64,000 nucleotides of DNA from an uncultured virus (IMG/VR IMGVR_UViG_3300021142_000024) (IMGVR_UViG_3300021142_000024:1-64000), one strand, 5' to 3'; shown: positions 2,049 through 63,388, counted from the stretch's first letter. Numbers and translations: made by a program. The notes: generated from the letters alone by a model not told the origin.

Positions 2049-3152
2049 TTAATTTGAAAGTGGCATTTTTATTGCAGGATGACTTTGATAATTCTCTAAA
2101 ATAATATCATCCAAGGTATATTCTGAAATATCATTAATAACCCTATCGGATATTTTTACCGTTGGTAATTCATATGGTTCTCTTGTTAACTGTTCTTTAA
2201 TGCCATCTATTTGATTTTTATAAATATGAGCATCACCTAAATTAGCAATTAGTTCATCAGGCACCATATTAACCATTTTACCTATAATTTCTAATAGAAG
2301 CGCATATGATGCGATATTAAATGGAAGACCTAATGGAACATCACTTGACCTCATATTGAACATTAAAGAGATTGCTCGTTTGGGAACTCCTATGGAATCA
2401 TAATATGCCATTTCATCTCCATACTCTACGTCATATTTTGCCCCATATTTATACTGCCTAAGATGTCGATATCTCTCCAATCTACTCAACTCTCTCGTAT
2501 AAAACTGAAAAAAGTTATGACATGGCCGAAGTACCATCTGGTCGAGTTCCCCCACGTTCCACGCTGATACAATTATACCTCTATCATCTGGATTTGTTTT
2601 GAGTATATGGATTGCATCTGCGATTTGGTCGGTTATACAGGTACCTACTTCATCTCTATTTGTTGTCCTATCAAAGTAAGTAAAGTATGACATCCAACTT
2701 CTCCACTGCTTACCATATATCGGCCCAAGTTCACCCCACTCCTTTGCAAACTCAGCATCCGTTTTAATACGCTCGATAAATTCTTCTTTTGATAGTTCAT
2801 CTTGTACATCTGGAGCATAACCTTCTCTAATTGCTTGAGGGTTCAATGCAACGCAATTATTTAAAGTAATCGATCCCCTGTACTTTTTATAAGCATCTCC
2901 TACCCATATAGTATTATCATTTTCTACGAGATACTCTATTGAAGTATCTCCACGTAAAAACCATAGAAGCTCGGTTACCATAGTTTTGAATGCCATTTTC
3001 TTCGTAGTCAAGAGTGGAAATCCTTCACTCATTTTATGTCGTATCTGTCTACCGAACACTGATATTGTTTGTCCATTTCTTGTTTCTTTTCTAGTACCAT
3101 TCTCTAAAATATCTTTTAAGAGATCTTGATAAGCCATGTCTATTTTATTCAT
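2049..3152 (-). CDS. thyA: thymidylate synthase (dUMP-specific)
   Basis: GFPLLTTKK, ELLWFLRG, GPIYGKQWR, LRPCH catalytic Cys, RSSDVPLGLPFN (Asn), GDAHIY. Confidence 0.97.
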   Translation of the reverse strand: MNKIDMAYQDLLKDILENGTRKETRNGQTISVFGRQIRHKMSEGFPLLTTKKMAFKTMVTELLWFLRGDTSIEYLVENDNTIWVGDAYKKYRGSITLNNCVALNPQAIREGYAPDVQDELSKEEFIERIKTDAEFAKEWGELGPIYGKQWRSWMSYFTYFDRTTNRDEVGTCITDQIADAIHILKTNPDDRGIIVSAWNVGELDQMVLRPCHNFFQFYTRELSRLERYRHLRQYKYGAKYDVEYGDEMAYYDSIGVPKRAISLMFNMRSSDVPLGLPFNIASYALLLEIIGKMVNMVPDELIANLGDAHIYKNQIDGIKEQLTREPYELPTVKISDRVINDISEYTLDDIILENYQSHPAIKMPLSN

Positions 3153-15878: not shown

Positions 15879-15879
15879 G

Positions 15880-16627: not shown

Positions 16628-16661
16628 ATATTTACTTTCCAATATGTCAAAGAACTAATTG

Positions 16662-16734: not shown

Positions 16735-16738
16735 ATTT

Positions 16739-16814
16739 TGGCACGCACGTAGGGATTCGAACCCTCATCTTTGGTTTTGGAGACCAATACTCTAGCCATT
16801 TGAGCTACGCACGC
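16739..16814 (-). tRNA. tRNA-Trp(CCA)
   Basis: Loop CTCCAAA, G73, encoded CCA. Confidence 0.93.
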
Positions 16815-43758: not shown

Positions 43759-43853
43759 TTAGACTGCATTATTATACCTAAATAATTTTTGGTTATCATT
43801 TTTTTATTATATTTTACTGTTATATATACTCAATATACTACTAAATAAGATTA

Positions 43854-45237: not shown

Positions 45238-45851
45238 ATACCAATTCCACATGTTGTTTTATAAATAAATTCTAAACATTCACTATGTTTTATATCTTGC
45301 CATAATTTAACTACACCTGGACATGCAGTGCTAGCTATATCATGTAAAACTATATACCCGTTTTCTTCTAGTAAAGGTAAAGCATTATTATAATCAGTTT
45401 TAACACCTTCATATGAATGATCTCCATCAATAAAAATAATATCATATTTTTTATTACATTTAGTTAACCATTCATTACTATCAGTATCATAAAATTCTAT
45501 TGTATTAGTTAAATTATTTTTCAACCATTTTATTTTTTCTACAATAGATTCTCTTTGATCTTGATGCCAATAAGAAGAGTTATCTATGGCTGTTGAAGAT
45601 TCTAAATTTTCTTGAATAAAAGTTTCAATTAAAAATGATCCACCTTTACCAATTCCTATATTTAAATAATTTTTAAATTTTTTATTTTTTAAGAACCATA
45701 AATATTCAATATATTCTTCAGGTACTTGTTGTATTTCTAGTCCACCTACATATAAATGATCACCAAACCAACTATGATGATTAACTCCAGCTTCATTACA
45801 TAACCAATAAAAAAGTTCATCTTTTGTAATTTTTTTTATATTTGGTATCAT
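45222..45851 (-). CDS. class I SAM-dependent methyltransferase (Methyltransf_24-like)
   Basis: IGIGKGGS, FIDGDHSYEGV, HDI. Confidence 0.88.
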   Translation of the reverse strand: MIPNIKKITKDELFYWLCNEAGVNHHSWFGDHLYVGGLEIQQVPEEYIEYLWFLKNKKFKNYLNIGIGKGGSFLIETFIQENLESSTAIDNSSYWHQDQRESIVEKIKWLKNNLTNTIEFYDTDSNEWLTKCNKKYDIIFIDGDHSYEGVKTDYNNALPLLEENGYIVLHDIASTACPGVVKLWQDIKHSECLEFIYKTTCGIGIWKKI

Positions 45852-45854
45852 ATT

Positions 45855-47081: not shown

Positions 47082-47736
47082 ATTTACTAATATTTAAACT
47101 AAAATTATTATTTGTTGGTTTTTTAATTGATTCAACTTTATTATACTTAGATGCATATTCAAATATAGTTTTAGCATGCGTTCCTATATTTAATATTCCA
47201 GTAATATCAGATTTTATCGCTTTTAATATCATTGGAGCTATAATATCAATATAATCTTTACTAACTATTTGATTAGTCCATGCTTTTGTATATGGAAATT
47301 TATTTGAACCAAAACTAGTTCTAATTATTAAATGATTTGGATTCAATCTAACTGAGCACTCTCCTCCTAATTTTGTCCATGCATAATTATTATATGGCAG
47401 TATATGATCTATTTCTTTATAATTTCCACGTATTCCTGGATATATATAATCAGTAGATATATAGATTAATCTTTTATTATTCTCAATGCAATATTCAGAT
47501 ATATATCCAGTACCTATTATATTAGTTTTTATAGCAAGTATTGGATTTATATCTATATCATGTGAATTAGTTATAGCTGCTGCATGAATTATAATATCTG
47601 GATTTATTGATTTTAATTTTAATTTTATATCATCTTTTGTAATATCAAAATCATTGCTAGATAGTCCTATAATATTTGGATCTATTTTTTGTAATTCTCT
47701 ACTTAACAATCCATTCTTCCCAGTAATTACTATCAT
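47059..47736 (-). CDS. rmlD: dTDP-4-dehydrorhamnose reductase-like SDR
   Basis: ITGKNGLL, IHAAA, YISTDY, YAWTK. Confidence 0.82.
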   Translation of the reverse strand: MIVITGKNGLLSRELQKIDPNIIGLSSNDFDITKDDIKLKLKSINPDIIIHAAAITNSHDIDINPILAIKTNIIGTGYISEYCIENNKRLIYISTDYIYPGIRGNYKEIDHILPYNNYAWTKLGGECSVRLNPNHLIIRTSFGSNKFPYTKAWTNQIVSKDYIDIIAPMILKAIKSDITGILNIGTHAKTIFEYASKYNKVESIKKPTNNNFSLNISKYEKLLSD

Positions 47737-48350
47737 ATTGTGTCGTATAATTTATTTTGTTTCTCTTGTCTTTCTATTGTCTTTGGATGTATCAAATAAA
47801 ATTGATCTGGTAATCTTGATACTCCTTTATATCCCACTAATCTTTCGTGGACTTTACCGATCCATTGTATTTCTGGAACGTTCTTACAAATTCTGCCTTG
47901 TAAATCTGGCCAATTAATTCTACTCTGATCATCTAGATTCCAACCCCATTTAGATATATGCTCCTTTGTTAAACCTTCTACTGTATTCCATCTTGGTATA
48001 TAGTACAGATCTACTTCAGGATTCATTTCTAATATCATTGGTAGATATTCAATAATATCCTCATTTAAGTATTCATCAGCATCTATATAAATAATATAAT
48101 CCTTTTTACAAAAATTCTTTATATTGTTCTTGAAAGTGGCAAAATCTTTATTTAATGGAAATTCAATTAGAGTTTCTATGTGATTTTTAAAACCAAACAC
48201 TATCATCTTAACCTCATCTGATGCATTAGTATCTAATTGGATTATTATTTCATCTTTTTCAGATTTATAATCACATAGCTTGGTAAGTAACCTATTTAAT
48301 TCTTCATGTTCATTACATGCTGTTATAGCATAACTAATTGTAGGAGTCAT
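47733..48350 (-). CDS. GT2 family glycosyltransferase
   Basis: IDADE, WPD.Q.R, W.GKVHE. Confidence 0.85.
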   Translation of the reverse strand: MTPTISYAITACNEHEELNRLLTKLCDYKSEKDEIIIQLDTNASDEVKMIVFGFKNHIETLIEFPLNKDFATFKNNIKNFCKKDYIIYIDADEYLNEDIIEYLPMILEMNPEVDLYYIPRWNTVEGLTKEHISKWGWNLDDQSRINWPDLQGRICKNVPEIQWIGKVHERLVGYKGVSRLPDQFYLIHPKTIERQEKQNKLYDTI

Positions 48351-48811
48351 TACTCTTCTATATTTTCAATTTCAAAAAATCCTATATAATTACAAGCATC
48401 AAAAAATCCGTCTATTCCAAAATGTTGCATAGTCTGTGAGTCAGATTTATGCGTTTGATTTTTAAAACGTGGAGATTGCGCCTCCTCTTTAGTCAATTCT
48501 TTTGTTTTAATTCCAGAAAAATAGCAATCATCTTTTGAAGTACCATTTAAAAATACAGTGCCTTTTGTAGGAATATTTATAGTAGCTGGGTACCAAACTC
48601 TACCACTTTCTTCTACATATGCACATTCTTTATGAAGTTCTGGAAGTGTGGACTCAAATTCTTCAAAATCAAATTCTCCTTCTATCATTAAATCAGATGT
48701 TTGATACCCACATTGAAAACAAATATAGGAGTTCATAGTCTCATTTATAGGAGTAGTATAGCAAGATTCTAGTGCTCCACATTTTGGACAAGTAGTTAAT
48801 TTATCTATCAT
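48350..48811 (-). CDS. Zn-ribbon hypothetical protein
   Basis: CPKC and CFQCG. Confidence 0.6.
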   Translation of the reverse strand: MIDKLTTCPKCGALESCYTTPINETMNSYICFQCGYQTSDLMIEGEFDFEEFESTLPELHKECAYVEESGRVWYPATINIPTKGTVFLNGTSKDDCYFSGIKTKELTKEEAQSPRFKNQTHKSDSQTMQHFGIDGFFDACNYIGFFEIENIEE

Positions 48812-50119
48812 TTACATTTTTTTTAAAGCGGGTAATTCTATTTTTTTGAGTTGGGGTAATTTTAAAGCTACGTGTTTAGGGAATTTATCTAAAGTCTCAT
48901 TGAGTTTTTCTTTCATTTTATCATATGTAAAATTCTCAAATACATATCTAGATTGACGTTTAGCATTAACCTCATAATTCTTATAATTCTGCCACATATC
49001 TAGCATCTTCTTAGCTGCAAAGTCCATATTTGGATAAAACCATTGTGATCCTTGTATAAGCATATTCTGTGCTTGAGCTGAGGGGTGTATCTCTTTAAGT
49101 TCTCCTGGGACAAAATTACAAAATTCATCATTACAAAAATCAAGATGACCTGACCAATATGATACTAATGCTGGCTTTTTAGACATAAAGAACTCTGAAA
49201 GTGGTCTAAAATACCCTTCGCCTTTTACTAGACCTAACATAACCTTAATTTTATCATGATTATATAGATCATTCATGTCATTATCTCCAAATTCACCATG
49301 AAGTAAATACACATTTGGAAGTGTTTTAGCTATCACAGTCTTTCTAATTGAATCTATTTTATTAAGAATATCATCTCTATCCATTATACTATTTGTGCCT
49401 CTTGCTGTCTTTAATATCAGAGCCGGTGGATTAGTCTTATTCTTAAATGTCTCAAGGAAAGTTTTTATAGTTAATCCCACATTTTTTCTATCTTCTCCGA
49501 TATCTCCATTCATCCAATGACCTACAAATAAAAAGCAGAAATTTTCTTTGATCTCATCAAGAGAATCTACTAAATCAGAACCTTTGATATTATTATCATC
49601 AATATAAAAATATTTAGATGTATCAATACCCTCAAATAGAACTTCTACTGGTTTCTCAAGTTTTATATGTGCTATTATCTGACCAGTATTATTATCTTTT
49701 TGATCAAATTTTGAATTCTCAAATACCTGTTTAGCATGTTCAGATGATACTAAAGTTAAATTCATTTTATTCACTCCTTGAATCCAACTAGGATCGCATA
49801 TAGTAGTCTCTATACCCGCAGTTACGCCTAAATTATATAGTTTACCTATAGGTTGAAATTCATTTGGTACTGTGATCTGGCACCAATAATCTGGTTGTTG
49901 ATTAAGTTGATAAATTAATAGAGTATTCATCCAACCCATAGTCTCCTGATGATCATTAATAAAACCCCATGGGCAATTACCCCAACGCTGAGGCAGTACT
50001 TTAATATCCCACTCATCTTTTTTTGACTCATAAAGAGCTTTAATAAAATCTCTACTTCTTGCACCATATCCTGAATAAGTGTCAATAGGACATGATATTA
50101 CACATAACGGCTTTATCAT
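48812..50119 (-). CDS. GT4-like (GT-B) glycosyltransferase
   Basis: SGYG, FLFVG, RKNV, KGEGYFRPLSE. Confidence 0.85.
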   Translation of the reverse strand: MIKPLCVISCPIDTYSGYGARSRDFIKALYESKKDEWDIKVLPQRWGNCPWGFINDHQETMGWMNTLLIYQLNQQPDYWCQITVPNEFQPIGKLYNLGVTAGIETTICDPSWIQGVNKMNLTLVSSEHAKQVFENSKFDQKDNNTGQIIAHIKLEKPVEVLFEGIDTSKYFYIDDNNIKGSDLVDSLDEIKENFCFLFVGHWMNGDIGEDRKNVGLTIKTFLETFKNKTNPPALILKTARGTNSIMDRDDILNKIDSIRKTVIAKTLPNVYLLHGEFGDNDMNDLYNHDKIKVMLGLVKGEGYFRPLSEFFMSKKPALVSYWSGHLDFCNDEFCNFVPGELKEIHPSAQAQNMLIQGSQWFYPNMDFAAKKMLDMWQNYKNYEVNAKRQSRYVFENFTYDKMKEKLNETLDKFPKHVALKLPQLKKIELPALKKM

Positions 50120-50120
50120 A

Positions 50121-51563
50121 TTAGTATGTTAATTTATGTTTAATCCTTTTAGGCTTGATTGATTCAATTTTTATCAATTGAAATTTCTTTCTTGGCTCAA
50201 AATTATCAATTGTCTTATTTATCGTATTTATTACATTCTTACACATCCATCTTGCACTCATCATAGACTCATCACCTGTAACCCATTTTCTAGCGCTCAG
50301 ACCAATTCTCTGACGATCTTCTAGGCCTATGTTATATAGATAATGGATTGCGGTAGAAATGTCCCTAAAATCGCACCTATCATCCCAAATATATGGAGTA
50401 GGCAGACTACCTACTAGACTTAAATTAGAAGGGAATACTGGAATTGCCCATGCGCCATGATCTTTTAAAGCGCCTTGATGATTAGATGGTAGTTCTGTAG
50501 AAGGAGTAAACCACTGACCTTGATCATCTACAAATCTCATTTGATCTTGCATACCTCCAGTAACGTTTGCAATTATCATTTTACCTGCCATCATAGACTC
50601 TGTCAAAGATAGACCCCAACCCTCATTAGAACTTACTAGAGCAGTTCCGTCTGCAATATTATATAGCAAATTCATTTGATCTGGACTATATGCACCATCT
50701 GCAAAATATACTTTCTGATACTCTGGATCACATAGTAATTCTATAACTACAGGTAGATCAGTACCATTCTCATCAGTTTTATGAGTATGCAGTAGTAGTG
50801 CACATTTCTTTGCATTCTCTTTGCCTATAGAATCCGTAAAGTGAGACCAGGCTGCAATCAGATCTGAAGTAGATTTTCTACGAATATTACGAGCATTGTA
50901 TAAAAGTACAAATTCTGGATCGAAATCACCAAATATAGATTTTTTAAGTGTTATCATATCATTATACTCAGGAGAATATTCTGTGATTGGTTTAAAGATA
51001 TTCTCATTAATTCCATGTGGTATATATTCTATTATCTTCTCTTTTGCAAGAGAATCAAGCACCATCTCTGTTATTAATTTTGTCTGCTTTGAAATGCACA
51101 TGAAAGTATCACATGATTCATAATATGATTTATTATATAGAGGAGCTGGAAAATTATCCCATATACTTAGATATATTAGGGGGGTGGTTTTTCTAATCTC
51201 AGCTTCCATATCAAAAAGCCAAGTATAATATCTAGGATCAGTAAATATTAATATAGCATCTGGCTTTTCTATTTGTAATATTTGACGTATTAGATCTGGA
51301 TTTCCATATCCATCAGTAGGATATAATATTACAGAAGAATTATCAATTCCTAAAATACTATCTGTATCTGTTGAAAGATCGAGTCTCTTACCTTTGTCTG
51401 GATGGTTCATTCCTCCAGCTATTTGAACCCAGTTAAATATATGAGCAGTACCTAAAACTATTTCTTTAGACATAGTAGCAATACCGCTAAAAAATCTAAG
51501 ATCATCACCTAAAAATAGGATCTTTTTCCTATCTTCTTTTTTAATGTAACCTGTATTTGTCAT
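50121..51563 (-). CDS. GT4 (GT-B) glycosyltransferase
   Basis: IPHGI, RNIRRK, EGWGLSLTESM. Confidence 0.88.
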   Translation of the reverse strand: MTNTGYIKKEDRKKILFLGDDLRFFSGIATMSKEIVLGTAHIFNWVQIAGGMNHPDKGKRLDLSTDTDSILGIDNSSVILYPTDGYGNPDLIRQILQIEKPDAILIFTDPRYYTWLFDMEAEIRKTTPLIYLSIWDNFPAPLYNKSYYESCDTFMCISKQTKLITEMVLDSLAKEKIIEYIPHGINENIFKPITEYSPEYNDMITLKKSIFGDFDPEFVLLYNARNIRRKSTSDLIAAWSHFTDSIGKENAKKCALLLHTHKTDENGTDLPVVIELLCDPEYQKVYFADGAYSPDQMNLLYNIADGTALVSSNEGWGLSLTESMMAGKMIIANVTGGMQDQMRFVDDQGQWFTPSTELPSNHQGALKDHGAWAIPVFPSNLSLVGSLPTPYIWDDRCDFRDISTAIHYLYNIGLEDRQRIGLSARKWVTGDESMMSARWMCKNVINTINKTIDNFEPRKKFQLIKIESIKPKRIKHKLTY

Positions 51564-53753: not shown

Positions 53754-55556
53754 TTATTGAAAATTTAATTTATGTTTATAGTATGATTTATGCTTTTCTA
53801 CTCCTGGTATATTCCAACCATTTTCAAAATCACTCATAGTATGATGCGGCTTTACATAATATTCCCAAATTGGGTTTTTTATATATTTTAAAAAAACACA
53901 TAACAAATCCTCTAAATCCATAGGTTTCATATTATATCTCTCTGCTAATTTTATAAAATCCCCATATTTAAATCCAGGCTTTAGTATTTTCATTGAGGCT
54001 GTAGCAGTAGGACCTAATTTACAGTGTGTCCACTCATTTATTTCAAATAGACCATTTAGTTTAGTGTCAAGATTTACATAATTTGCAAGATCTCCCGCCA
54101 TTAAAAGATAGTGGAAATTAAATGCATGGAGTTTATTATCTCTATTATACTCATTCATTATATCTACTATACCATCAAGACTAGTACCTGGTTTTATTTT
54201 ATCAATAATATGATCTGCCCAAGGTCTAAAATGATTTATTACTAGATCTTTTAGTGGATAACGTGGAGGTTGATTTACACAGCAGCTTACAAAATTTCCA
54301 GTATCTGCTTTCATAAAAGGATAAAAATCTTCATAAGAATTAAATCTTTGGAAATTCAATAATATAGTATTATTATATCCATGATTATATTGATTTGAAG
54401 TACCTGATCCAAATATTCTATGTGAGTAGATCAAGAAGAGATAATCATAAATTCCCCAATTAGGATTTGCTACTGGTTTATATAGATCCCAAGTGAGTGA
54501 ATTTTCTTGCATAAAATAATCTTCAAGCAAGAATATAAAGCCCTCATATCTTCTATCAATATTATGAAATAAATTTACATTATCTATATATTTATCTCCA
54601 GTATTAAATTCTCTTTTCTTAGTATCTATAAAAACTTTTTCTGTCTTTCGATTAATATCTATATAATAGTCAAGACATTCTAGAGCTATTGGATTAAATC
54701 CCTGTTCATTTAATATCACACTCTTCTTTGTAATTTTTTCTGTATCTTCAAGTTTATATACACTCTGAGATCCTTTAGACTCCTCTTGCTCTACTGATAT
54801 ATTATCTTCTATTTTACATTGATATTCTTGAGTCTCTTCATTTTTAAATGATACATAGCTTTGAGATACTGTAGTTTCCATATCTGGAATATCAGAGAAT
54901 TTCATATAGCTAGTTTGAGGTTTGATCTTATCATAATGTCTCTTATAGATATGGAGATTTGTAATAAACCAATGCATTTCACCCATTGAAGTATTTGTAT
55001 CAAAACAAATCTTACTCATAAGCTTTGCAAAAGTATATTGATCATTGCAGAATCCCAGCCATAAATCAATACTTCTTGCGAATACTGTAAGATTAAGTCG
55101 ACCATCAACTATTGTGAAGTTTAATACAACATTACATGGAGTGTCTGAGGCATATCTGTCTAGCTCATTTATATCGTAATGAACTACTATCGCTCTTCTT
55201 GTATTCGGGTTGCTCTTGAGCTCCTGGATAGCACGATCTAACTGTCCATTTTTATTCCAAAAAAATCCATAATTACTATTCACTTCTGTAGTGCCTGGAA
55301 TCATCATGTTCTTCCATATCTTAGCACGTTCAGAAATTTCAGATGCGTCTCTATTTCCTGTTAAATACCAATGCCACTCATATTCTGCATAGTCTACATT
55401 AAACTTACGTTCTGGTTCTGTGATAATCATCTGCATTGGATTATCTAAAGTAAAAGAGGCATTAAATTTTGCTTTAGTACTAGCAAAATCTACCCCCGTA
55501 GACATTATATCTAAGTAAAGACTTTTAAATGCTTCATTTGCGTTTTTAAATCTCAT
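53754..55556 (-). CDS. fusion: dCMP hydroxymethylase-like thymidylate-synthase-fold domain plus C-terminal putative base-modification domain
   Basis: NSNYG, DTPCN, RSIDLWLGFCND (Asp), NLHIY; acidic linker; C-domain HNIDRRYEGF, HRIFGSG, HGYNN, DLED..C. Confidence 0.75.
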   Translation of the reverse strand: MRFKNANEAFKSLYLDIMSTGVDFASTKAKFNASFTLDNPMQMIITEPERKFNVDYAEYEWHWYLTGNRDASEISERAKIWKNMMIPGTTEVNSNYGFFWNKNGQLDRAIQELKSNPNTRRAIVVHYDINELDRYASDTPCNVVLNFTIVDGRLNLTVFARSIDLWLGFCNDQYTFAKLMSKICFDTNTSMGEMHWFITNLHIYKRHYDKIKPQTSYMKFSDIPDMETTVSQSYVSFKNEETQEYQCKIEDNISVEQEESKGSQSVYKLEDTEKITKKSVILNEQGFNPIALECLDYYIDINRKTEKVFIDTKKREFNTGDKYIDNVNLFHNIDRRYEGFIFLLEDYFMQENSLTWDLYKPVANPNWGIYDYLFLIYSHRIFGSGTSNQYNHGYNNTILLNFQRFNSYEDFYPFMKADTGNFVSCCVNQPPRYPLKDLVINHFRPWADHIIDKIKPGTSLDGIVDIMNEYNRDNKLHAFNFHYLLMAGDLANYVNLDTKLNGLFEINEWTHCKLGPTATASMKILKPGFKYGDFIKLAERYNMKPMDLEDLLCVFLKYIKNPIWEYYVKPHHTMSDFENGWNIPGVEKHKSYYKHKLNFQ

Positions 55557-55947
55557 ATTTGGAAATTTCTATAAATTGTTTTAAAAAATCTATACCATCA
55601 GTTTTTCTATACTGCTCTAGATATAGTACTCTTTTTATTCCAGATTGTAATATTAATTTTGCACATTCAATACAAGGACTAAGAGTCAAATATAAAATGG
55701 CATTATTTATTGAATATCCTGATTTTGCAGCTTTAAGAATAGCATTCATTTCAGCATGTACAACATACGGGAGTGTAATATTGTCTCTTTCACAGCAATT
55801 ATCCATTCCAGAAGGAGTACCATTATACCCAAATGCTATAATATTTCCATCTTTTATTAAAAGTGCACCTACTTTATTTCTCTCACAATGAGAAAGGGTG
55901 GCTATCTCTTTTGCAATATTAAGATAAACTTTATCTAATTTTGACAC
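55546..55947 (-). CDS. dCMP deaminase
   Basis: GYNG, HAE.NA, SPCIEC. Confidence 0.93.
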   Translation of the reverse strand: MSKLDKVYLNIAKEIATLSHCERNKVGALLIKDGNIIAFGYNGTPSGMDNCCERDNITLPYVVHAEMNAILKAAKSGYSINNAILYLTLSPCIECAKLILQSGIKRVLYLEQYRKTDGIDFLKQFIEISKYEI

Positions 55948-55965
55948 AACCTTTATTTTATTTTT

Positions 55966-56397
55966 TTAGTTAATTCCAGTACTTCCAAATCCACTTTCAC
56001 CTCTTTGAGTCTCTATAGAATCTAATTGATCTACTACTTCAACTTCTTCATAATTTACTGGTACGAGTATAAACTGAATAATTTTTTTACCTGCTTCAAG
56101 TATATCATTTGCTTTACCTGCATTGAATACGTGAATATGAATTTCTCCGGTATAATCCTCATCTACTATTTCAGCTCCTTTAATGAGCTTATTTTTTGTA
56201 GCTATTCCACTTTTATTTGCTGCCATTAACATATATCCAGTAGGAATATTTGCTTTAATACCTGATGGAATTAGAATATCTTCTCCTGGTCTAAGTATTG
56301 TACATTCAAAATCATTTGGAATATAAAAGTCTATACCTGCACTTTTATTAGTGCCTCTGGTTGGAGTTTTTACTGGTCTTGTTTTAATTATCTTCAT
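55966..56397 (-). CDS. dut: trimeric dUTPase
   Basis: SAGID, KSG, VDEDYTGEI, RG..GFGSTG. Confidence 0.93.
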   Translation of the reverse strand: MKIIKTRPVKTPTRGTNKSAGIDFYIPNDFECTILRPGEDILIPSGIKANIPTGYMLMAANKSGIATKNKLIKGAEIVDEDYTGEIHIHVFNAGKANDILEAGKKIIQFILVPVNYEEVEVVDQLDSIETQRGESGFGSTGIN

Positions 56398-56400
56398 ATC

Positions 56401-56682
56401 TTATTTTGTTTTATTATAATCTTCTTTATAATGATCTACCATTGCTGCCATATAAGATATAGCATCTAGTATATTATCATACTTTTTACTATAAGATTCT
56501 CTAGACATTTTTAATGCTACCATACAAAGATACATGTCTTTTGCTGTAATTTCTTTATTGCACATAGTAGAAGCTAATAGAGCGGCTTTTTCCATACTCT
56601 CTTTCATAGGACCATATTGTCTAGATCCCTCTTCACCTCTTTTAAAAACTATATTATTTGCTTGTTCTAATATATTACTCAT
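56401..56682 (-). CDS. DUF6378-like small helical protein (possible nucleotide pyrophosphatase)
   Basis: IL..A..IV...R.YG...M..LK.SR...DN..D...Y. Confidence 0.6.
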   Translation of the reverse strand: MSNILEQANNIVFKRGEEGSRQYGPMKESMEKAALLASTMCNKEITAKDMYLCMVALKMSRESYSKKYDNILDAISYMAAMVDHYKEDYNKTK

Positions 56683-56708
56683 AATAGAATTTAATCATAT
56701 TATTATTA

Positions 56709-57632
56709 TTAAGACAATATATCCTGTAAGTATGGATAATATTTAGGTTTGAGATGTACACTTTGCCTAGATTCTAAAATATCTAACATCGCAGTACCAT
56801 CATCATCAATCCAGCTATCTGGCCATGATATAAATTTAAGTCCAGAATTAGCGATAATATCATTTGCTATTTGTCTTAATTCCATTCTTTGCTGTCTAGA
56901 TCCAAAAAATGGTTGCTTTTTATATAATCCAGTTCCTGGTATTTTACGAGATTCATGTTCTATTGGAAGTAATTGAACTAGTATAGGATTATTTAATTCT
57001 TTTGCAAAATTTACATATTTTGTAAATAATTCTTTTGTGGCAGTAATTGGATCTACTTGACGAGCTAGATGGAATCTGGTATCAATATTTCCAAAGTAAA
57101 GTACTACATTACCTGATCTAGTTGCATTTATAGCTTGTGCATTTGCATGTTTAAGCCAACCATATAGCGTTTTACCTGGATTAAAACTAAGAGCGTACCC
57201 TGGTCTCCAGACTGAGAGAGAATGTGAATCTCCTATTACAATATTAGGATTTGGTTTAGAAAAATAATCTACAGCACTGCTTATAGGCCAATTATGACTA
57301 TCGACTTTTATCCTCTGGTTAAATTTTCTAAAATCAAAAGTTTTATTAACAAATTCAAATTCGCCTTCAAATTCAGATATTGCCTGCATCTTCTCAGTAT
57401 GAATTGACTGAGGTCCTCCTGGGATATTAAAACTACCATCAGTAAAATTTACACCTTCACATATATAAAGTTTTTCATATTGACTCCAAGTACTAGGATC
57501 TGGATTGACATCTATTACATCTTGTGGATTTTGATCTTTGACCATTTTTGCGCATATGAGACCATATCCAGATCCTTGAGAATTCATCCCAGTTCCTACA
57601 TTACTCATTATTGATATTAATGCAGCTTTCAT
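56709..57632 (-). CDS. SGNH-like protein in nucleotide-modification cluster
   Basis: IGDSH, FGNID.R.H, QSVHL motifs. Confidence 0.55.
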   Translation of the reverse strand: MKAALISIMSNVGTGMNSQGSGYGLICAKMVKDQNPQDVIDVNPDPSTWSQYEKLYICEGVNFTDGSFNIPGGPQSIHTEKMQAISEFEGEFEFVNKTFDFRKFNQRIKVDSHNWPISSAVDYFSKPNPNIVIGDSHSLSVWRPGYALSFNPGKTLYGWLKHANAQAINATRSGNVVLYFGNIDTRFHLARQVDPITATKELFTKYVNFAKELNNPILVQLLPIEHESRKIPGTGLYKKQPFFGSRQQRMELRQIANDIIANSGLKFISWPDSWIDDDGTAMLDILESRQSVHLKPKYYPYLQDILS

Positions 57633-57769: not shown

Positions 57770-59419
57770 TTACATACCCATGCCCATCATAGGATCTGGA
57801 GTGTCTTGCTCTTTATCTGATTTTTTTTCAAGTACCACTGCATCTACTGTGAGTATTGTACCAGCTACACTCGCTGCATTTTTTATAGAAGATATTACTA
57901 CTTTTGTAGGATCAAGTAGACCAGCTTCAATACCATTTACTACTGCTCTATTTTTAGCATCAAATGTTGTAAATACATCGTCTTTAGAATTTACATTATA
58001 TAAAATTTCATACCAATTCTCAATACCTGAATTTGATAGAATTGTTTTAAATGGCGCATAGCAGGCAGTTTCTACTATAGAAAGAGCAATCTTTTCATTT
58101 GAATTCCAATTTATAGTATTATTCTTTATAGACATAAATGCTTTGATAAGTGCAATACCACCGCCTGGAAGTATACCTTCTGCAAGTGCGGCTTTAGTCG
58201 CCAGAAGTGCATCTTCTACTCTGTCTTTCTTTTCTTTGATCTCAATTTCAGAATTTCCACCTACATTTATAATAGCAACTCCACCTACAAGTTTACCAAG
58301 ACGCTCTTGAAGTTTCTCTTTTTCAAAAAATGATGTTGCACTTTCTATCTGCTCTTTAATCTCATTTGCTCTATTAGAAATTGCTGTCTCATCCCCTTTA
58401 CCATCTACTATTGTAGTAGTCTCTTTAGCTACTGTGGCAAGACGTGATTTACCTAGATATTTATCTAATTCTGAAGATGAGAGTTTATCAAGTTTATGTC
58501 CTTTGCTTTTTGACATTACTGTACCTCCAGTAAGAATTGCCATATCTTCAAGAATCAAAGTTCTTCTATCTCCAAAGTCTGGTGCTTTTACTGCACATAC
58601 TTTTACTACATTTCGCATTTTATTTACGATCATTAGTGCGAGTGCCTCATCTCCAAAGTCTTCTGCAATTACTAGAAGTGATCTATTTTCAGTATTTGCT
58701 TTCTGTAGAAATGGAATCATCTCAGCTGCAGTTTGAATACGACCATCATAGAGCATAATATAGCAATCATCTAGTACTGCATTCATTGTGGTATTATTAG
58801 TCACAAAATATGGACTCTTATATCCACGATCAAATTGCATACCTTCAACTACTTCAAGAGTAGTTTCACCGGTCTTAGATTCTTCAATAGTCACAATACC
58901 TTCACGACCAACTTTATCTATAGCAGCAGAAATCAGCTCTCCTACTTCAATATCATTATTACCTGAGATAGTTGCCACTTGTTTAATTTGATCTTCTGTG
59001 CTGACATCTACTGATAGTGATTTAAGTTGATCTATAATCATAGAGACTGTCTTATCAATACCGTGCTTAACTTCTACTGCATTAACTCCTTGACGTATAG
59101 TCTTCATTCCCCCTTGAATCATCTTTGTTGCAAGTAATGTAGATGTTGTTGTACCATCACCGGCCTCATTTGCTGATTTAATTGATACTTGTTTTACCAT
59201 CTGTGCTCCAAGATCTTCTATATCATTTTCAAGTCTATTAAAGGCCTTTGAGCAAGTTACTCCGTCTTTTGTGGCTTTTACTTCACCATAAGGTTCACGT
59301 ATTAATACTGTGCGACCTCCTGGACCGAGTGTTGATGATACTATATCATTGAGTTTATTAATTCCAGCAAGAAGTTGCTCTTTAAGTTCTGTCCCTATTA
59401 AATGTTTTGTTTCGCTCAT
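57770..59419 (-). CDS. groEL: chaperonin GroEL
   Basis: [32 protein letters not shown]-rich tail. Confidence 0.97.
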
Positions 59420-60030
59420 AATCTATTTTGATTGTTTTTTAATTTGCTTTTTCCACCCAAAGACCATCCAATATGGATATAGTCTTCTAAATTTTGTTTT
59501 TGAATATACTTATTTTTACCGTCTTTATTAATACAAATAGAATTTGAATTATGAGAAATTCTGCCTTTATTCTGAATTCCAAATCTAGATAAATCTCCAG
59601 AATGTTTTTTGCCCTTCATCCAAGTAGTTCTACCTTTATTCTGAATTCCAAATCTAGATAAATCTCCAAAATGTTTTTTGCCATAAAAGGAATTTAATTC
59701 TCCAAATTTTCCCTTTTGAGAAGCCATTTTAACTCTAGATTCCTCAGATAAATTTGGAGCGCCATCTCCTCCATCTGTAAGATTTACTAATGGACCTAAT
59801 CCTAAATCTCTACGACCTATTTCTTTTATTAATTTCTTTTCTATCTCACAAGCCTCTTCCCAAGAAATATTATTATATAAAATTTTTATAGCGTATTCAT
59901 GATTTTTTATATAATCTCTCCAAGTTTTTCCTCTACTTTTTTTATCAAAAGCTCTCTTTTCACTTTTACCTATTCCTATATAAAATATCTGATTTGTATC
60001 AATCCTGTGATGTTGGTATACTATAGCCAT
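59416..60030 (-). CDS. GIY-YIG-like homing endonuclease with NUMOD-type repeats (likely start 60030)
   Basis: VYQH...FYIGIG...RA, LVNLTDGGDG, duplicated GKKH.GDLSRFGIQNKGR. Confidence 0.75.
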   Translation of the reverse strand: MAIVYQHHRIDTNQIFYIGIGKSEKRAFDKKSRGKTWRDYIKNHEYAIKILYNNISWEEACEIEKKLIKEIGRRDLGLGPLVNLTDGGDGAPNLSEESRVKMASQKGKFGELNSFYGKKHFGDLSRFGIQNKGRTTWMKGKKHSGDLSRFGIQNKGRISHNSNSICINKDGKNKYIQKQNLEDYIHIGWSLGGKSKLKNNQNRL

Positions 60031-60160
60031 CTTTTTGTAATTTATCTTTAATAAGTTTTTCAACTAATGCTCCAAGAATCAAACAATTAGCCTTACAGTG
60101 TTTTTTTAAAATGCTGTGAAGAGTTTTATCTATCTGTATTGATGCGCGTTGATTTTCCAT
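59999..60160 (-). CDS. 53-aa ribbon-helix-helix-like protein (not in ORF track)
   Basis: MENQRASIQIDKTLHSILKKHCKANCLILGALVEKLI...; preceded by an ATATTTAT motif. Confidence 0.6.
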   Translation of the reverse strand: MENQRASIQIDKTLHSILKKHCKANCLILGALVEKLIKDKLQKDGYSIPTSQD

Positions 60161-60409: not shown

Positions 60410-60700
60410 TTAATTTATTATTGCTAAAATTTCTGTTTCTCTTGTTATATAATAATCTTGTCCTTCTAGTTTTACTGACATTGATCCAAGTTTTGGAATA
60501 AGTACAATGTCTCCTACATTTAGATTTGAAGGGACTTCTTTATCAGTGTGATAGTTCCAAGCATTTGAGATTGCTACTACTTCACCTGATTCTGGACGCT
60601 CTTTGCCCATGTCTGGAAGGATAATATTTCCTACCATCTCTTCCGATGTTTCTACTGGTCGCAGTACTACATGACCATTTAGTGGTTTTAATTTTGACAT
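60410..60700 (-). CDS. groES: co-chaperonin GroES
   Basis: LKPL..HVV, IILPD..KE.P..GEVVA, VGD.V, ILAI. Confidence 0.93.
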   Translation of the reverse strand: MSKLKPLNGHVVLRPVETSEEMVGNIILPDMGKERPESGEVVAISNAWNYHTDKEVPSNLNVGDIVLIPKLGSMSVKLEGQDYYITRETEILAIIN

Positions 60701-61078: not shown

Positions 61079-63388
61079 TTAGTGGCCATCTTTCCAATTG
61101 TAGGCAATAGCTGGAGGTGCTTTAAGATCTATGCTTATTTTAGTAGTATTTTCCATACAATCTTGTACTATCTTAGCACAGATTTCTGCATCTTTTGCTG
61201 GCACTTCTGTAATAATCTGATCATGAATTTGTGCACATACCCAGCCATTTATACCTAAATCTTTGAGTCGTCTATTAATTGCAATGGCAGCACGGTTTAC
61301 TATAGATGCAGATAACCCCTGAATCTGTACATTTCTGGCATTATTAATACCATTAATATAGTCTCTATACAGCTTAGTAACTTTATCTTTACCGTATTGT
61401 TTAATTAATAATTGTCTAACTTGCCAATCAGTAATAGCCTCTCCTAGAGTATCATGTATCTTTTTAACCTTGTCTAAGTGACGTATACGACCTACTTGAG
61501 TTTTTACATACCCTAGATTTTGTGCATCATATTTAGATCTGTCCATCCACTCTTTTAGTGCAGGAAATCCATTAAGATAACCATCTACTAAAACTTGTGC
61601 CTGTTTTGCTGGTATACCTAGATTCATACCAAGTGCATAAGCTCCCATACCATAAGGAATACCTAGAGCATAGGCTTTGGCTTTATTTCTAAGTTTTGGC
61701 GCCTGCTTTCTTAAGAAATTTTCTGCTTTTTTATCAGGGGAGTATTGATCTAATTTTTCTGTTTTTATTGCGATAGTAGAGTAGAAGTCCCAGTTATTCC
61801 TAAAGATGTCCTTGAGTCCATCATCTCCAGATACATGTGCGAATACATGTGGCTCAAGAGACTCATAGTCACAATCTATAAATTTATTATCTGTATCTGG
61901 AATAAAGAATGCTCTTACTAGATTTGTATATTCTACTACTATAGGATCATCATCGCCTTCTTCTTTAGGTCTAGGTAATTGCTGAGAGTCTGAACCATAT
62001 CTTCCAGAGACTGTGCCATGCTGTTTATAATAAAAGAAATATCGACCATCTTCATGTGCTTCTAAGAATCTATCCATATAAGTAGATCTTATTTTTAGTA
62101 ACTTACCATATATCCTTAGATTTTTAGCCCATTCATATTTATCTGAAATACTTTGAATAAGTTCATCATCAAATTGTGGTTTGCCTCCTGGTGTACTTGA
62201 TAGTGATTTTATACCTAGTGCATTGAATGCAATATCTCCCATTTGATCTTTAGACTGTATATTAAAAAATAGTCCATCATTATCGTCTTTCCATAGTTTA
62301 AGACTAATTGCTTGAATATCAGAATCTTCTAATAAAAAATCATGACCTTCAATTAAAAATCTCTGTGCTGGTGAAGCGGGCAATAAAGTTAGATTTGATC
62401 TTGTAATATTATATTTTCCAGTTTTTTCAGATTTTGGAAGTGGTAATTTATAATAATCTGCAATAGCTTGAGCAAATTTGCCTTTATTACTTACTGGCCA
62501 CTCTTGTTGAGCCTTATTTAATATCCAAGTTTTAACTTGTTGTTTTGATAGTAGATCTTTAGTAATTATATCTATATACTTGCTCATCTCCACATTTATC
62601 TTTTCTCTTGAAGATTTAATGAGTTCAATATCTAATTTTACCCCCTTATCTTCCATAGGTATAGTTACTTCTTTATAAAGAGGCATAACCTCATCATTAA
62701 AAAAGAAATTAGTCAAACCCTGTTCTTCAATCTTAGTAAGATAGTAATCATATATCCTAAGAGTTAAGTCAACGTCAGCACAGGCGTATTTTGAGAGTAT
62801 ATCAAGATCAGCTTTCCAAATCTCATAATTGTCTTTTGTAATACTGCCCCCATTTCTTTTTATAGACTCTTTAAGTTCTATCTGCTCTTGATTAGCCTCA
62901 CTAGATACATCAATGCCAATTTCAGATTGTATGCTTTTAGCCACCTCTTTAAGTGCAAAAGACCCACCTCCATTTTCTGAATTTACACCCTCTTCTTGAA
63001 TAGTATGCACCATAAGTATAGTATCTGCATGAATACTATTAATAAGATCTACTCCATAAAAATTCTTAACGAATCTGGCATCGAAAGATAAGTTATGCCC
63101 TATAATTTTTTTATCAATTAATAGTGCAATAATTCTCTTAGCTATATCATGGCATAGCACACCCTCTATCTTAGAGTCTATAAGCAGACCATCTTGAAGG
63201 ATCATAGTAGGCATATAGTAACCATGATCCCTTTCTCCAGTAATAGAGAATCCTATAATTTTACCTTTTCTGGGATTTAGAGAGTTTGTTTCAGTATCAA
63301 ATGCAATTATATCATGCTTTTGAATGTGAGCTATCATCTCCTTGACGCTCGCTAAAGTATTTACTGTTAAATATTGTCTCTGAGTCAT
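61079..63388 (-). CDS. polA: family A DNA polymerase with 3'-5' exonuclease
   Basis: Exo DTET, GHN..FD, YACAD; T.SGR, DYESLE, R.KAK...G.PYG, QIHD. Confidence 0.95.
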   Translation of the reverse strand: MTQRQYLTVNTLASVKEMIAHIQKHDIIAFDTETNSLNPRKGKIIGFSITGERDHGYYMPTMILQDGLLIDSKIEGVLCHDIAKRIIALLIDKKIIGHNLSFDARFVKNFYGVDLINSIHADTILMVHTIQEEGVNSENGGGSFALKEVAKSIQSEIGIDVSSEANQEQIELKESIKRNGGSITKDNYEIWKADLDILSKYACADVDLTLRIYDYYLTKIEEQGLTNFFFNDEVMPLYKEVTIPMEDKGVKLDIELIKSSREKINVEMSKYIDIITKDLLSKQQVKTWILNKAQQEWPVSNKGKFAQAIADYYKLPLPKSEKTGKYNITRSNLTLLPASPAQRFLIEGHDFLLEDSDIQAISLKLWKDDNDGLFFNIQSKDQMGDIAFNALGIKSLSSTPGGKPQFDDELIQSISDKYEWAKNLRIYGKLLKIRSTYMDRFLEAHEDGRYFFYYKQHGTVSGRYGSDSQQLPRPKEEGDDDPIVVEYTNLVRAFFIPDTDNKFIDCDYESLEPHVFAHVSGDDGLKDIFRNNWDFYSTIAIKTEKLDQYSPDKKAENFLRKQAPKLRNKAKAYALGIPYGMGAYALGMNLGIPAKQAQVLVDGYLNGFPALKEWMDRSKYDAQNLGYVKTQVGRIRHLDKVKKIHDTLGEAITDWQVRQLLIKQYGKDKVTKLYRDYINGINNARNVQIQGLSASIVNRAAIAINRRLKDLGINGWVCAQIHDQIITEVPAKDAEICAKIVQDCMENTTKISIDLKAPPAIAYNWKDGH

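Follow-up and report, generated by a model that had tools for sequence, protein, structure and literature searches.

A candidate cytosine hypermodification module in an uncultured virus, with a predicted dCMP hydroxymethylase fused to a helical domain

Among the described enzymes of the aGPT-Pplase superfamily are the amino-acid:DNA transferases (AADT), such as PaMx11 gp46 and M6 gp51, and the helical domains that belong to 5-hmdU DNA kinases (HMUDK_hel). For PaMx11 gp46, the accessible text of PMC11472151 proposes Cys247 and Glu243 as catalytic and metal-binding residues, and the available part of PMC8989533 reports that a Cys and a Glu are essential in M6 gp51 and that M6 gp55, a member of the HMUDK_hel family, is dispensable in vitro. 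On the cytosine side, a metagenome-derived 5hmC carbamoyltransferase system, which produces 5cmdC, modifies 5hmC post-replicatively according to the excerpted text of PMC8670742. The substrates and products of thymidylate synthase (TS) homologues can be read from a few positions, as laid out in the accessible sections of PMC13326640: Asp replacing ThyA Asn177 confers specificity for dCMP rather than dUMP, an acidic residue replacing Leu143 admits water and leads to a hydroxymethyl instead of a methyl product, and Asn at the D169 position marks 5-hydroxy-dCMP synthases, whereas 5hm-dCMP synthases keep Asp.

Layout of the locus and the predicted dCMP hydroxymethylase

The window, i.e. the whole stretch of 64,000 nucleotides that was analysed, derives from an uncultured virus (IMG/VR IMGVR_UViG_3300021142_000024). 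The features considered here are the following.

53754-55556, minus strand: fusion ORF, a single open frame of 600 aa
54912..55556, minus strand: TS-fold domain, about residues 1-215 of the 600-aa ORF; PF00303; predicted dCMP hydroxymethylase
54738..54911, minus strand: linker, about residues 216-273 of the 600-aa ORF, described from its composition and relatives' sequences
53754..54737, minus strand: C-terminal 327-aa all-helical domain (CD), characterized by AF2 model, Foldseek, conserved columns and hhalign
55546..55947, minus strand: dCMP deaminase; PF00383, E 1.4e-25; phrog_174
55966..56397, minus strand: dUTPase, trimeric-type; PF00692, E 2.4e-24; phrog_135
56401..56682, minus strand: DUF6378 small helical protein; PF19905, E 1.4e-13
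56709..57632, minus strand: P307, 307 aa, unnamed family, possibly SGNH/GDSL-like; phrog_13881, E 1e-42, function unannotated
2049..3152, minus strand: canonical ThyA, 367 aa with an internal insertion; PF00303, E 1.3e-89

The stop of the dCMP deaminase gene and the start of the fusion gene overlap by 11 nt. The original prediction had described a second TS-fold domain that is joined to a domain of ~330 aa and clustered with dCMP deaminase, dUTPase and DUF6378 genes. This observation is confirmed: PF00303 matched residues 27-243 of the fusion protein (E 4.4e-29, Pfam), the 327-aa helical domain lies in the same 600-aa frame and all three neighbours were matched by Pfam. The canonical ThyA, which is the predicted source of dTMP, was found where it had been placed, on the minus strand, a detail left unstated before; its motif is RSSDVPLGLPFN, and its residues at the L143 and N177 positions are Leu (in L-R-P-C) and Asn, respectively. 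The linker exists as well, but it had been called acidic and is mildly so, with 16 acidic against 11 basic residues within residues 206-285.

In the TS domain of the fusion protein, the motif RSIDLWLGFCND occupies residues 161-172 and ends in Asp172. The domain aligned with the T4 dCMP hydroxymethylase 1b49_A (E 1.8e-16, HMMER alignment); RSIDLWLGFCND falls on RSNDVVFGFRND of the T4 enzyme, and the catalytic Cys141 on the Cys of T4 gp42 and ThyA (C148 in T4, C146 in E. coli ThyA). Asp172 takes the ThyA N177 position and Asp138 the L143 position (D-T-P-C, three residues ahead of Cys141). Asp164 corresponds to ThyA D169 and is kept (R-S-I-D); the mark of 5-hydroxy-dCMP synthases, Asn instead of Asp at this position, is absent from the domain. 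Judged by its sequence, the TS domain bears every mark of a dCMP hydroxymethylase given in the accessible text of PMC13326640, and the three Asp residues at the N177, L143 and D169 positions support the earlier proposal that the phage makes a 5-substituted dC. Assignment to a ThyA equivalog failed for this domain in NCBIfam (best 78 bits, cut-offs 108-576 bits), and the closest phage matches in tblastn were Bacteroides phage genes annotated as deoxycytidylate 5-hydroxymethyltransferase (45% identity).

Fold and motif of the C-terminal domain

When CD was searched by sequence, no match was obtained in Pfam at E <= 10, in NCBIfam or among PDB sequences. Its AF2 model, built on a 52-row alignment, reached a pLDDT of 93.4 and a pTM of 0.91. 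Foldseek with this model against BFVD gave three matches at E <= 0.001 (TM 0.68-0.72), of which one bears the name 'Amino acid:DNA transferase domain-containing'; among the named entries, Pplase1, another AADT, SP10 5-hmdU DNA kinase, HMUDK_hel proteins and endonuclease III came next, and matches of the HMUDK_hel type stood at ranks 4, 6, 9, 11 and 14. Among the 48,161 solved chains compared by VIA, the top match was PaMx11 gp46, the 5-PmdU glycinyltransferase (8z2m_A; rmsd 3.6, 195 residues aligned, 7% identity), with a Z score of 8.5, which is middling and, according to the tool's note, within the chance range for helical models. It was followed by HhH glycosylases and queuine-salvage DUF2419 at Z 5-8. 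The Foldseek search, proposed originally as a check for an unrelated fold, placed members of the aGPT-Pplase superfamily among the top matches of the predicted structure.

Across 52 members of the CD family, Glu276 (Glu549 in the full protein) is invariant and Cys280 (Cys553) is conserved in at least 90%. In hhalign, the residues paired with this Glu-x3-Cys were E243/C247 in the AADT profile (E 0.049, probability 1%, 45 columns) and E291/C295 in the HMUDK_hel profile (E 0.0012, probability 19%, 76 columns), the latter alignment spanning three shared motifs, namely a hairpin, an A-G-P-G-A-like motif and the Glu-x3-Cys itself. Searches with the Pfam profiles stayed below their cut-offs: one of the 52 members matched PF18724 (ADDT) at E 1e-3 with 19.3 bits, under the cut-off of 26.2, and the best of the 52 reached E 0.01 with PF18723. 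As positive controls, M6 gp51 scored 159.6 bits (PF18724) and M6 gp55 189.9 bits (PF18723). The Glu-x3-Cys is no proof of transferase activity, because it is also invariant in HMUDK_hel, whose member M6 gp55 is dispensable in vitro.

The model points to the aGPT-Pplase superfamily, in particular its AADT and HMUDK_hel branches, as the closest relatives of CD, and CD may represent a new clade of this helix-hairpin-helix (HhH) superfamily, although the link by sequence is weak. The original prediction had likened the domain to the aGPT-Pplase families; the model matches and the Glu-x3-Cys are in agreement with this, and the interpretation given at that time is supported within the limits of sequence and structure prediction.

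Occurrence of the gene set and a proposed pathway

A relative is encoded in 391 of 414 candidate stretches of viral contigs, and the best 80 of these 391 were surveyed. In the 80 loci, Asp occupies the D169 position in all 61 TS-like ORFs and stands three residues ahead of the Cys in 57 of them; at the N177 position, Asp was present in 59 of the 59 TS-like ORFs counted beside a CD ORF. Of the distant loci, 29 have flanks of 4 kb or more on either side; in these, the CD family is accompanied by an Asp-type TS homologue in 27, by P307 in 28 and by both in 27, and P307 is the most constant partner of CD. Homologues of P307 were also found in three Aeromonas phages with a putative modification of hmC, namely 44RR2.8t, 31 and 25. 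TS homologue, P307 and CD appear to form a widespread, undescribed gene set, which probably decorates viral DNA cytosines.

The neighbourhood is variable beyond this set. Eight ~290-310-aa neighbours in distant loci gave sub-threshold PALP matches (E 5.4e-7 to 0.16; the control M6 gp52 scores E 5.6e-10), and in L029, L065 and L057, all of them distant, a small DUF1599 or dGTP_diPhyd_N protein adjoins the TS homologue. Neither a PALP-like gene nor a MazG-type dCTPase was found in the window's lineage, so that an amino-acid adduct and full replacement of C are both uncertain. PF18723 and the PF18748 kinase were not found in the window's record (~48% complete), nor was the kinase found in the records of four relatives, one of which is a complete 158-kb genome.

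Our best reading, to which we assign a probability of roughly 0.55, is post-replicative hypermodification of 5hmC, the equivalent, for cytosine, of the pathway by which phages hypermodify thymidine. In the first step, for which the sequence argues strongly, the TS domain would convert dCMP to 5hm-dCMP; dCMP deaminase, dUTPase and the separate ThyA would sustain dTMP synthesis, and replication would bring 5hmC into DNA. In the second step, which we infer from fold, motif and gene context, CD would flip 5hmC from the duplex as a DNA-glycosylase-like HhH enzyme, and CD and P307 would jointly derivatise the 5-hydroxymethyl group. As the most likely split, P307 would replace the P-loop 5-hmdU DNA kinase and esterify or otherwise activate the hydroxyl, and CD would use Cys553/Glu549 as PaMx11 gp46 and M6 gp51 use Cys247/Glu243: Cys553 would attack C6, the activated group would depart and a nucleophile would capture the exocyclic methylene. 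The weakly PLP-enzyme-like protein in many distant loci suggests, by analogy with the M6 decarboxylase gp52, an amino-acid adduct that would be trimmed later.

SGNH/GDSL enzymes carry GDS(x) with the nucleophilic Ser in block I, GxND in block III and DxxH in block V. P307 contains GDSHS (134-138), GNIDTRFH (181-188), PIEHESRKIPGTGLYK (223-238) and SVH (291-293). G134-D135-S136-H137 is invariant in 29 sequences, and G-N-I-D and S-V-H are conserved, but with a spacing unlike the canonical SGNH blocks and with no Asp three residues ahead of the His in S-V-H. Lipase_GDSL matched two homologues below threshold (E 0.02 and 0.066), and language-model look-alikes (Atlas) point to GDSL (score 0.91, 145-152 shared features). 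For the P307 of the window itself, no Pfam match at E <= 10 and no PDB sequence match was obtained. The original description of 56709-57632 as SGNH-like agrees with the GDSH motif and the sub-threshold GDSL matches, and P307 is possibly SGNH/GDSL-like.

A second reading, tentative and clearly less probable than the first, makes P307 the sole catalyst, which would move e.g. an acyl group onto the 5hmC hydroxyl, with CD as a DNA-binding, base-flipping subunit; the product would be an O-substituted 5hmC, formed without Cys-dependent substitution. Several gene architectures agree with it. P307 is fused to CD in P0039 (P307 at residues 12-332, hhalign E 2.8e-62; CD at 447-699) and in P0047, which is built alike. 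In ORF233c of Aeromonas phage 44RR2.8t, P307 is fused to a domain weakly matching HMUDK_hel (E 9e-4), which mirrors the kinase plus HMUDK_hel architecture of SP10, and in 5-hmdU DNA kinases the HMUDK_hel domain likewise accompanies a P-loop kinase; moreover, CD aligned slightly better to HMUDK_hel than to AADT. Tenacibaculum phage PTm1 encodes P307 without CD, so that P307 can work without CD, and the adjoining TS homologue has a 5-hydroxy-C signature, which fits an enzyme acting on a C5-linked hydroxyl. However, a purely P307-based catalysis leaves the near-invariant Cys and the invariant Glu of CD unexplained, as well as the PLP-enzyme-like gene of many distant loci; in the thymidine pathway, the PLP-enzyme gene acts on the amino-acid adduct made by the AADT. 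It also rests on a putative fold and putative catalytic residues of P307.

It is improbable that CD acts before replication, modifying 5hm-dCMP further for incorporation by the phage polymerase, although CD is covalently joined to a mononucleotide enzyme, the TS gene directly adjoins the CD gene in some distant loci and, in the list of solved matches, the HhH-fold queuine-salvage DUF2419 takes ranks two and three (Z 7.9). DUF2419 enzymes of queuine salvage act on free nucleosides or nucleotides. The TS-CD fusion was present in 13 of 22 closely related viral loci (579-607 aa) and in 10 of 16 database relatives and is not an assembly artefact, because it recurs in both. It is restricted to one lineage; the linker varies in length and sequence between relatives and in two loci (L003, L006) holds a homing-endonuclease insertion, which splits the fusion in phages otherwise 98-99% identical, and in L017-L023 the TS and CD genes are 1-2 kb apart. 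The restriction to one lineage, the split and the spacing of 1-2 kb argue against a mononucleotide substrate of CD, as does the fact that every characterised member of the superfamily acts on DNA, as described in the accessible parts of PMC8989533 and PMC11472151.

The fusion is better seen, from these gene arrangements, as a probable lineage-specific joining of genes adjacent elsewhere, dispensable for function. The two domains are indeed split in relatives, a point raised originally, being unfused in distant loci; the fusion had been called unusual, which is true in that it is lineage-specific, but it recurs in related loci and is a variant of a widespread unfused module. Neither this variant nature nor P307 as the most constant partner of CD had been recognized earlier.

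Just downstream of the module, the same strand carries two GT-B-like genes (48812-51563, at a distance of 2-5 kb) and a cluster for sugar tailoring (41760-48350). In several distant loci, genes for sugar-nucleotide enzymes stand between those of the module, and in the window a 480-aa downstream protein gave weak BshA/GT4-type matches in the NCBIfam scan, a class resembled by the DNA arabinosyltransferases of RB69 and DLP3 according to the available text of PMC13326640. Nevertheless, it is unlikely that the phage makes plain 5hmC, or 5hmC glycosylated by the GT-B enzymes, with CD (whose fold is that of DNA glycosylases) and P307 serving another DNA transaction, e.g. repair or exclusion of unmodified DNA, as CD, P307 and Asp-type hydroxymethylases co-occur tightly and specifically, all three together, and CD retains a Glu-x3-Cys of the AADT type, which speaks for a part of both in the modification itself. 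The window's glycan genes, except for one RmlD-like match, are not common to the distant loci.

Comparison with known systems

The 5cmdC system is also encoded beside a TS homologue, dCMP deaminase and MazG-like genes, as reported in the excerpted text of PMC8670742, but the enzyme families of the window are wholly different, and Pfam detected no carbamoyltransferase domain among the window ORFs scanned. T4 gp42 (PDB 1b49/1b5e) resembles the TS domain in its TS fold and in the motif R-S-x-D-x3-G-F-x-N-D; both have the catalytic Cys, preceded at a distance of three residues by Asp, and a further Asp at the N177 position. Unlike gp42, the TS domain is fused to a second domain, and T4-type glucosyltransferases or a MazG-type dCTPase are not found alongside. 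Judged by its family A polymerase, whose nearest cultured match is Flavobacterium phage immuto (50% identity), the phage does not appear to be T4-like.

HMUDK_hel (PF18723, clade 1 aGPT-Pplase; M6 gp55 and the C-terminal part of SP10 gp186) has the same predicted superfamily fold as CD and gave its best profile-profile alignment, although the similarity is under the family thresholds. CD, too, occurs fused to or beside a presumed catalytic partner, which is P307 and not a P-loop kinase.

Compared with the amino-acid:DNA transferases PaMx11 gp46 and M6 gp51, all CD members score below the Pfam cut-off, the Glu is mostly followed by Asp in the CD family but by Thr244 in both transferases, the accompanying hydroxymethylase is predicted to be of the dCMP type (Asp) and not dUMP-specific, and no 5-hmdU DNA kinase was found accompanying CD in the records searched. 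At the same time, the CD model shares their two-lobed helical HhH glycosylase-like fold, the profile alignment sets the Glu-x3-Cys close to the C-terminus against the catalytic E243/C247, and the gene cluster of CD likewise includes a pyrimidine hydroxymethylase of the TS fold, joined in distant loci by a weakly PLP-enzyme-like protein.

Gene order and the thymidylate-synthase-fold domain

The source record is 75.6 kb long, with a GC content of about 30% and an estimated completeness of 48%, and the minus strand carries nearly all genes. The flagged stretch is made up of five closely packed genes, given here with the canonical thymidylate synthase (TS) gene:

56709-57632, minus strand: 307-aa ORF (P307)
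56401-56682, minus strand: DUF6378 protein, 93 aa, Pfam-confirmed
55966-56397, minus strand: dUTPase, Pfam-confirmed
55546-55947, minus strand: dCMP deaminase, Pfam-confirmed
53754-55556, minus strand: fusion of a TS-fold domain and a C-terminal domain (CD), 600 aa, with an 11-nt overlap with the deaminase stop
2049-3152, minus strand: canonical ThyA, E 1.3e-89

The original prediction had read a second TS-fold domain, a canonical ThyA and the named neighbours from the sequence, and this reading is correct, as Pfam matches on the 600-aa protein, the three neighbours and ThyA show. The fusion was likewise described correctly; the acidity ascribed to its linker is just mild (of 80 residues, 16 are acidic and 11 basic). 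The canonical ThyA has 367 aa; about 40 of them form an insertion that separates the R-S-x-D motif from the catalytic Cys, and there are further extra segments.

PF00303 covered residues 27-243 of the fusion protein (E 4.4e-29), and HMMER aligned the domain to T4 dCMP hydroxymethylase (1b49_A, E 1.8e-16), placing RSIDLWLGFCND of the window opposite T4 RSNDVVFGFRND; in ThyA sequences Asn ends the same motif. According to Lee et al. (2026, PMC13326640), dCMP is the substrate where ThyA position N177 holds Asp, a hydroxymethyl instead of a methyl product is associated with an acidic L143 position, and Asn at D169 marks the recently found 5-hydroxy-dCMP synthases. The TS domain has Asp172 at the N177 position, Asp138 (in D-T-P-C) at the L143 position and keeps D169 as Asp164, and the canonical ThyA of the window shows L-R-P-C and Asn at those marks. 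The claim of the original prediction that Asp selects dCMP over dUMP, as in T4, fits the published mark at N177. NCBIfam ThyA equivalogs scored far under their cut-offs, and the closest phage matches, at 45% identity, were genes of Bacteroides phages that carry the annotation deoxycytidylate 5-hydroxymethyltransferase. Judged by its sequence, the domain is a 5hm-dCMP synthase of the dCMP-specific hydroxymethylase type. A 5-hydroxy-dCMP synthase was also considered, and was rejected because Asp169 is retained.

A short way downstream of the locus lies a run of sugar-related genes (41760-51563, minus strand), encoding two GT-B-like proteins (480 and 435 aa), two GT2 proteins, an RmlD-like reductase fragment, a C-methyltransferase and a Methyltransf_24 protein. 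The 480-aa protein gave weak matches to BshA/GT4, a class that the RB69 and DLP3 DNA arabinosyltransferases resemble; the products of this run could serve glycosylation of DNA, virion or host surface. Phage-encoded homologues of GroEL (57770-59419), GroES (60410-60700) and a family A DNA polymerase (61079-63388) are all found on the minus strand. The nearest cultured match of the polymerase is in Flavobacterium phage vB_FspM_immuto (50% identity), which hints at a Bacteroidota host. Elsewhere on the minus strand, a 228-aa protein (35248-35934) matched PF25188, the type I Thoeris inhibitor Tad6 (E 8.9e-15), and is likely an anti-defence gene; ARAGORN predicted a tmRNA (10057-10457, tag ANVELSTWTFEDAMAFADGEFAMAA) as well as 15 arrayed tRNA genes (13850-16814).

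The C-terminal domain

When CD was searched against Pfam no match was obtained even at E 10, and NCBIfam gave none either. The same was true for tblastn of CD and of the distant family member P0025 against 50,697 phage records, and for the CD family profile against PDB sequences at E <= 10. A word-based search recovered just 16 close relatives: ten TS fusions (578-607 aa), three stand-alone proteins (330-339 aa) and three proteins of 436-445 aa whose N-terminus differs. Searched exhaustively with HMMER, 1.84 billion representatives yielded 61 CD proteins at E <= 0.001, mostly stand-alone and 300-390 aa long. Aligned, these proteins form a real family, with the motifs H-R-x-T-G-S-G, D-H-G-Y-x-N, N-Q-x-P, F-x-x-T-A-x-x-x-D-x-A-x-Y, G-x-N-A and E-D-x-x-C-D-x-x-R-Y; Glu276 (Glu549 of the fusion protein) is invariant in the alignment, and Cys280 (Cys553) is conserved in at least 90% of the sequences.

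An AlphaFold model from a 4-row alignment (pLDDT 46) was set aside, and the model built with 52 sequences reached pLDDT 93.4 and pTM 0.91. Against viral models, Foldseek returned three matches (E 2.6e-8 to 1.8e-7, TM 0.68-0.72), one of them named as an amino-acid:DNA transferase (AADT) domain protein; the next named rows were Pplase1, a second AADT, the SP10 5-hmdU DNA kinase, several HMUDK_hel proteins and endonuclease III. Foldseek against the PDB had no match at E <= 0.001; AGOG glycosylases were among its weak leading rows. In an all-against-all structural scan of 48,161 PDB chains the top match was 8z2m_A, the 5-PmdU glycinyltransferase PaMx11 gp46, with a Z of 8.5 that is not high for a helical protein, the ranking agreeing with the viral-library matches; behind it, at Z 5-8, came queuine-salvage enzymes (DUF2419) and HhH DNA glycosylases.

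Glu243 of PaMx11 gp46 binds a metal and the base O4, and Cys247 attacks C6 (PMC11472151), and Cys and Glu are essential in M6 gp51 and ViI gp247 (PMC8989533). With hhalign, the CD family aligned weakly to the AADT profile (E 0.049) and the HMUDK_hel profile (E 0.0012), and both alignments put its Glu-x3-Cys on theirs; M6 gp55 aligned weakly as a single sequence (E 0.0038), and M6 gp51 gave no meaningful alignment (E 0.19). Going by the fold, the Glu-x3-Cys alignments and the Pfam nulls, the most fitting place for CD is in a new aGPT-Pplase superfamily clade outside both Pfam models, PF18723 and PF18724, so that it belongs to neither of these Pfam families. Clades of this superfamily were reportedly defined by Iyer et al. 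in 2013. The original prediction had likened CD to aGPT-type proteins, and the viral-model matches of Foldseek, the PDB scan and the weak hhalign alignments point to that superfamily.

Conserved gene context, P307 and cultured carriers

The genome context is the most informative result. In a scan of viral contigs, 391 stretches encoded a relative, so that the module is common in this collection, and the best 80 of these 391 loci were examined. The fusion, which the original prediction had regarded as unusual, is one of several arrangements: TS and CD are fused in 13 of the 22 close loci, encoded by separate genes in L017-L023, and split by an insertion in two close phages that are otherwise 98-99% identical (L003, L006). 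In the latter, a homing-endonuclease ORF replaces nt 546-780 of the gene, so that TS becomes a separate protein of 213 aa and CD one of 445 aa that begins with a new N-terminus:

L006:6872-7961 and L003:2275-3364: insertion of about 1.09 kb, in relatives 98-99% identical to window 53754-55556
L006:7025-7654: homing endonuclease ORF, 209 aa, NUMOD3/GIY-YIG-like

In the window itself, a 215-aa ORF (59416-60063, minus strand) lies directly downstream of GroEL in the same orientation, with a 4-nt overlap with the GroEL 3' end. It carries a NUMOD3 motif and, over 93 aa, is 49% identical to the L006 homing-endonuclease-like ORF; it probably encodes a homing endonuclease itself.

The remaining 58 loci are distant (about 25% identity), and in 29 of them the CD gene is flanked by 4 kb or more on either side. 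Among these 29, a TS homologue was found in 27, a P307 homologue in 28 and both in 27; TS and CD genes abut directly in four, and the fusion seems to have arisen secondarily, when adjacent genes were joined. Asp occupies N177 in each of the 59 TS-like ORFs counted next to a CD ORF, and among the TS-like ORFs of the best 80 loci Asp169 is kept in 61/61 and Asp stands three residues before Cys in 57/61. Distant neighbourhoods also hold dCMP deaminase, dUTPase, MazG-like, ThyX and DUF1599 or dGTP_diPhyd_N small proteins, sugar-nucleotide enzymes, and T4-type UvsX and helicase genes. A further neighbour of about 300 aa showed sub-threshold PALP similarity (eight proteins, E 5.4e-7 to 0.16; the same model gave 5.6e-10 on the PLP-dependent decarboxylase M6 gp52). 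A search run without a positive control, which shows little, brought up no PLP-enzyme-like gene for the window's record or the complete relative G001, and MazG and PRA-PH dCTPase families were not found in G000 or G001. The PF18748 5-hmdU DNA kinase domain was not found in the window's record or those of four relatives (one complete, 158 kb), and HMUDK_hel had no match in the window's record.

P307 itself had no Pfam match, and its family profile had none among PDB sequences at E <= 10. The family alignment contains invariant G-D-S-H, I-D-x-R-x-H and P-x-E-x-x-x-R-x-x-P-x-x-G-x-x-K and a conserved S-V-H. Two homologues gave weak Lipase_GDSL matches, and the language-model look-alikes of two distant members were GDSL/SGNH clusters (0.91). 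The SGNH-like label attached to P307 in the original prediction thus stands as a lead, and not as an established finding.

P307 was detected in 43 cultured-phage records, from 38 Aeromonas T4-like, three Tenacibaculum and two Stenotrophomonas phages:

L082:6001-8388: Aeromonas phage 44RR2.8t (NC_005135) ORF233c, 795-aa hypothetical protein
L091:6175-6852 and L085:6965-7984: Tenacibaculum phage PTm1 (NC_049340)

The N-terminal third of ORF233c is P307; its C-terminal part matched HMUDK_hel weakly (E 9e-4), with the hairpin, A-G-P-G-A and Glu/Cys motifs present. The CD profile gave no meaningful hhalign alignment with it (E 0.51), and a CD profile search found no member of the CD family in 44RR2.8t or PTm1. 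Phage 44RR2.8t encodes a gp42-type TS homologue, RSNDAIFGYRND. As stated by Petrov et al. (2010, PMC2993671), 44RR, 31 and 25 possess genes 42 and 56 and lack glucosyltransferases, and whether gene-42 phages modify Hm-dCMP further was left as an open question. In the cultured phage 44RR2.8t, ORF233c is a candidate enzyme for hmC modification, and with it that question becomes testable on one named gene. In PTm1, which has no CD, ribonucleotide reductase genes flank the gene of a stand-alone P307 homologue (gp050); the second TS homologue of this phage, gp167, has E-Y-P-C and R-S-N-N...D, with Asn at D169 and Asp at N177, and so carries the published 5-hydroxy-dCMP synthase signature.

Proposed pathway and relation to known systems

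By analogy with the thymidine pathway, we favour, with a probability of roughly 55%, a scheme of activation, substitution and trimming. The TS domain, according to its sequence, would hydroxymethylate dCMP. As fold, motif and context suggest, CD would flip out 5hmC in DNA and, with P307, alter its hydroxymethyl group: P307 would stand in for the absent kinase and activate the hydroxyl, and CD would carry out a Cys/Glu-dependent substitution. The PLP-like enzyme of distant loci, not found in the window's lineage, may then trim an amino-acid adduct. A more specific version is tentative: P307 might be a non-kinase SGNH-fold enzyme esterifying 5hmC in DNA, with CD swapping the ester for an amino acid or amine via a Cys-C6 adduct. 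If so, the ester would be a new kind of activated DNA base and the swap the first amino-acid- or amine-type cytosine hypermodification, present across many uncultured aquatic phages and, as a fused variant, in Aeromonas phages 44RR2.8t, 31 and 25.

P307 and CD are also joined to each other. In P0039, P307 occupies residues 12-332 (hhalign E 2.8e-62) and CD residues 447-699, and P0047 has the same build. Such fusions of P307 to helical domains mirror the kinase-HMUDK_hel fusions and speak for P307 as the sole catalyst with CD as its targeting subunit, the main rival to the favoured scheme, which we consider an unlikely arrangement overall. Less likely than either this or the favoured scheme, and improbable in our view, are two further readings: that CD acts on mononucleotides, or that the 5hmC is plain or glycosylated and CD and P307 have some unrelated role.

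New DNA-base chemistry of this type bears on phage resistance to restriction and CRISPR, on virome sequencing artefacts and on enzymatic DNA-labelling tools. The kinds of phage pyrimidine modification that turned up in the literature were thymidine hypermodification via kinase and AADT, glucosyl-hmC, glycosylated 5-hydroxy-C, TET-derived glycosylation and 5-carbamoyloxymethyl-C. No system in which an Asp-type hydroxymethylase stands together with an aGPT-Pplase-like protein and a P307-type enzyme appeared in our literature search; Iyer et al. (2013) may have predicted cytosine-linked aGPT-Pplase contexts, which might bear on priority. A search for a 5hmC DNA kinase or 5-PmdC gave nothing relevant. 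CD and P307 represent two protein families without a Pfam, NCBIfam or PDB sequence model. To our knowledge, every aGPT-Pplase-based phage hypermodification has thymidine as its target and a P-loop DNA kinase as its first enzyme; the present locus points to a parallel hypermodification pathway on cytosine, in which P307 appears in place of the kinase.
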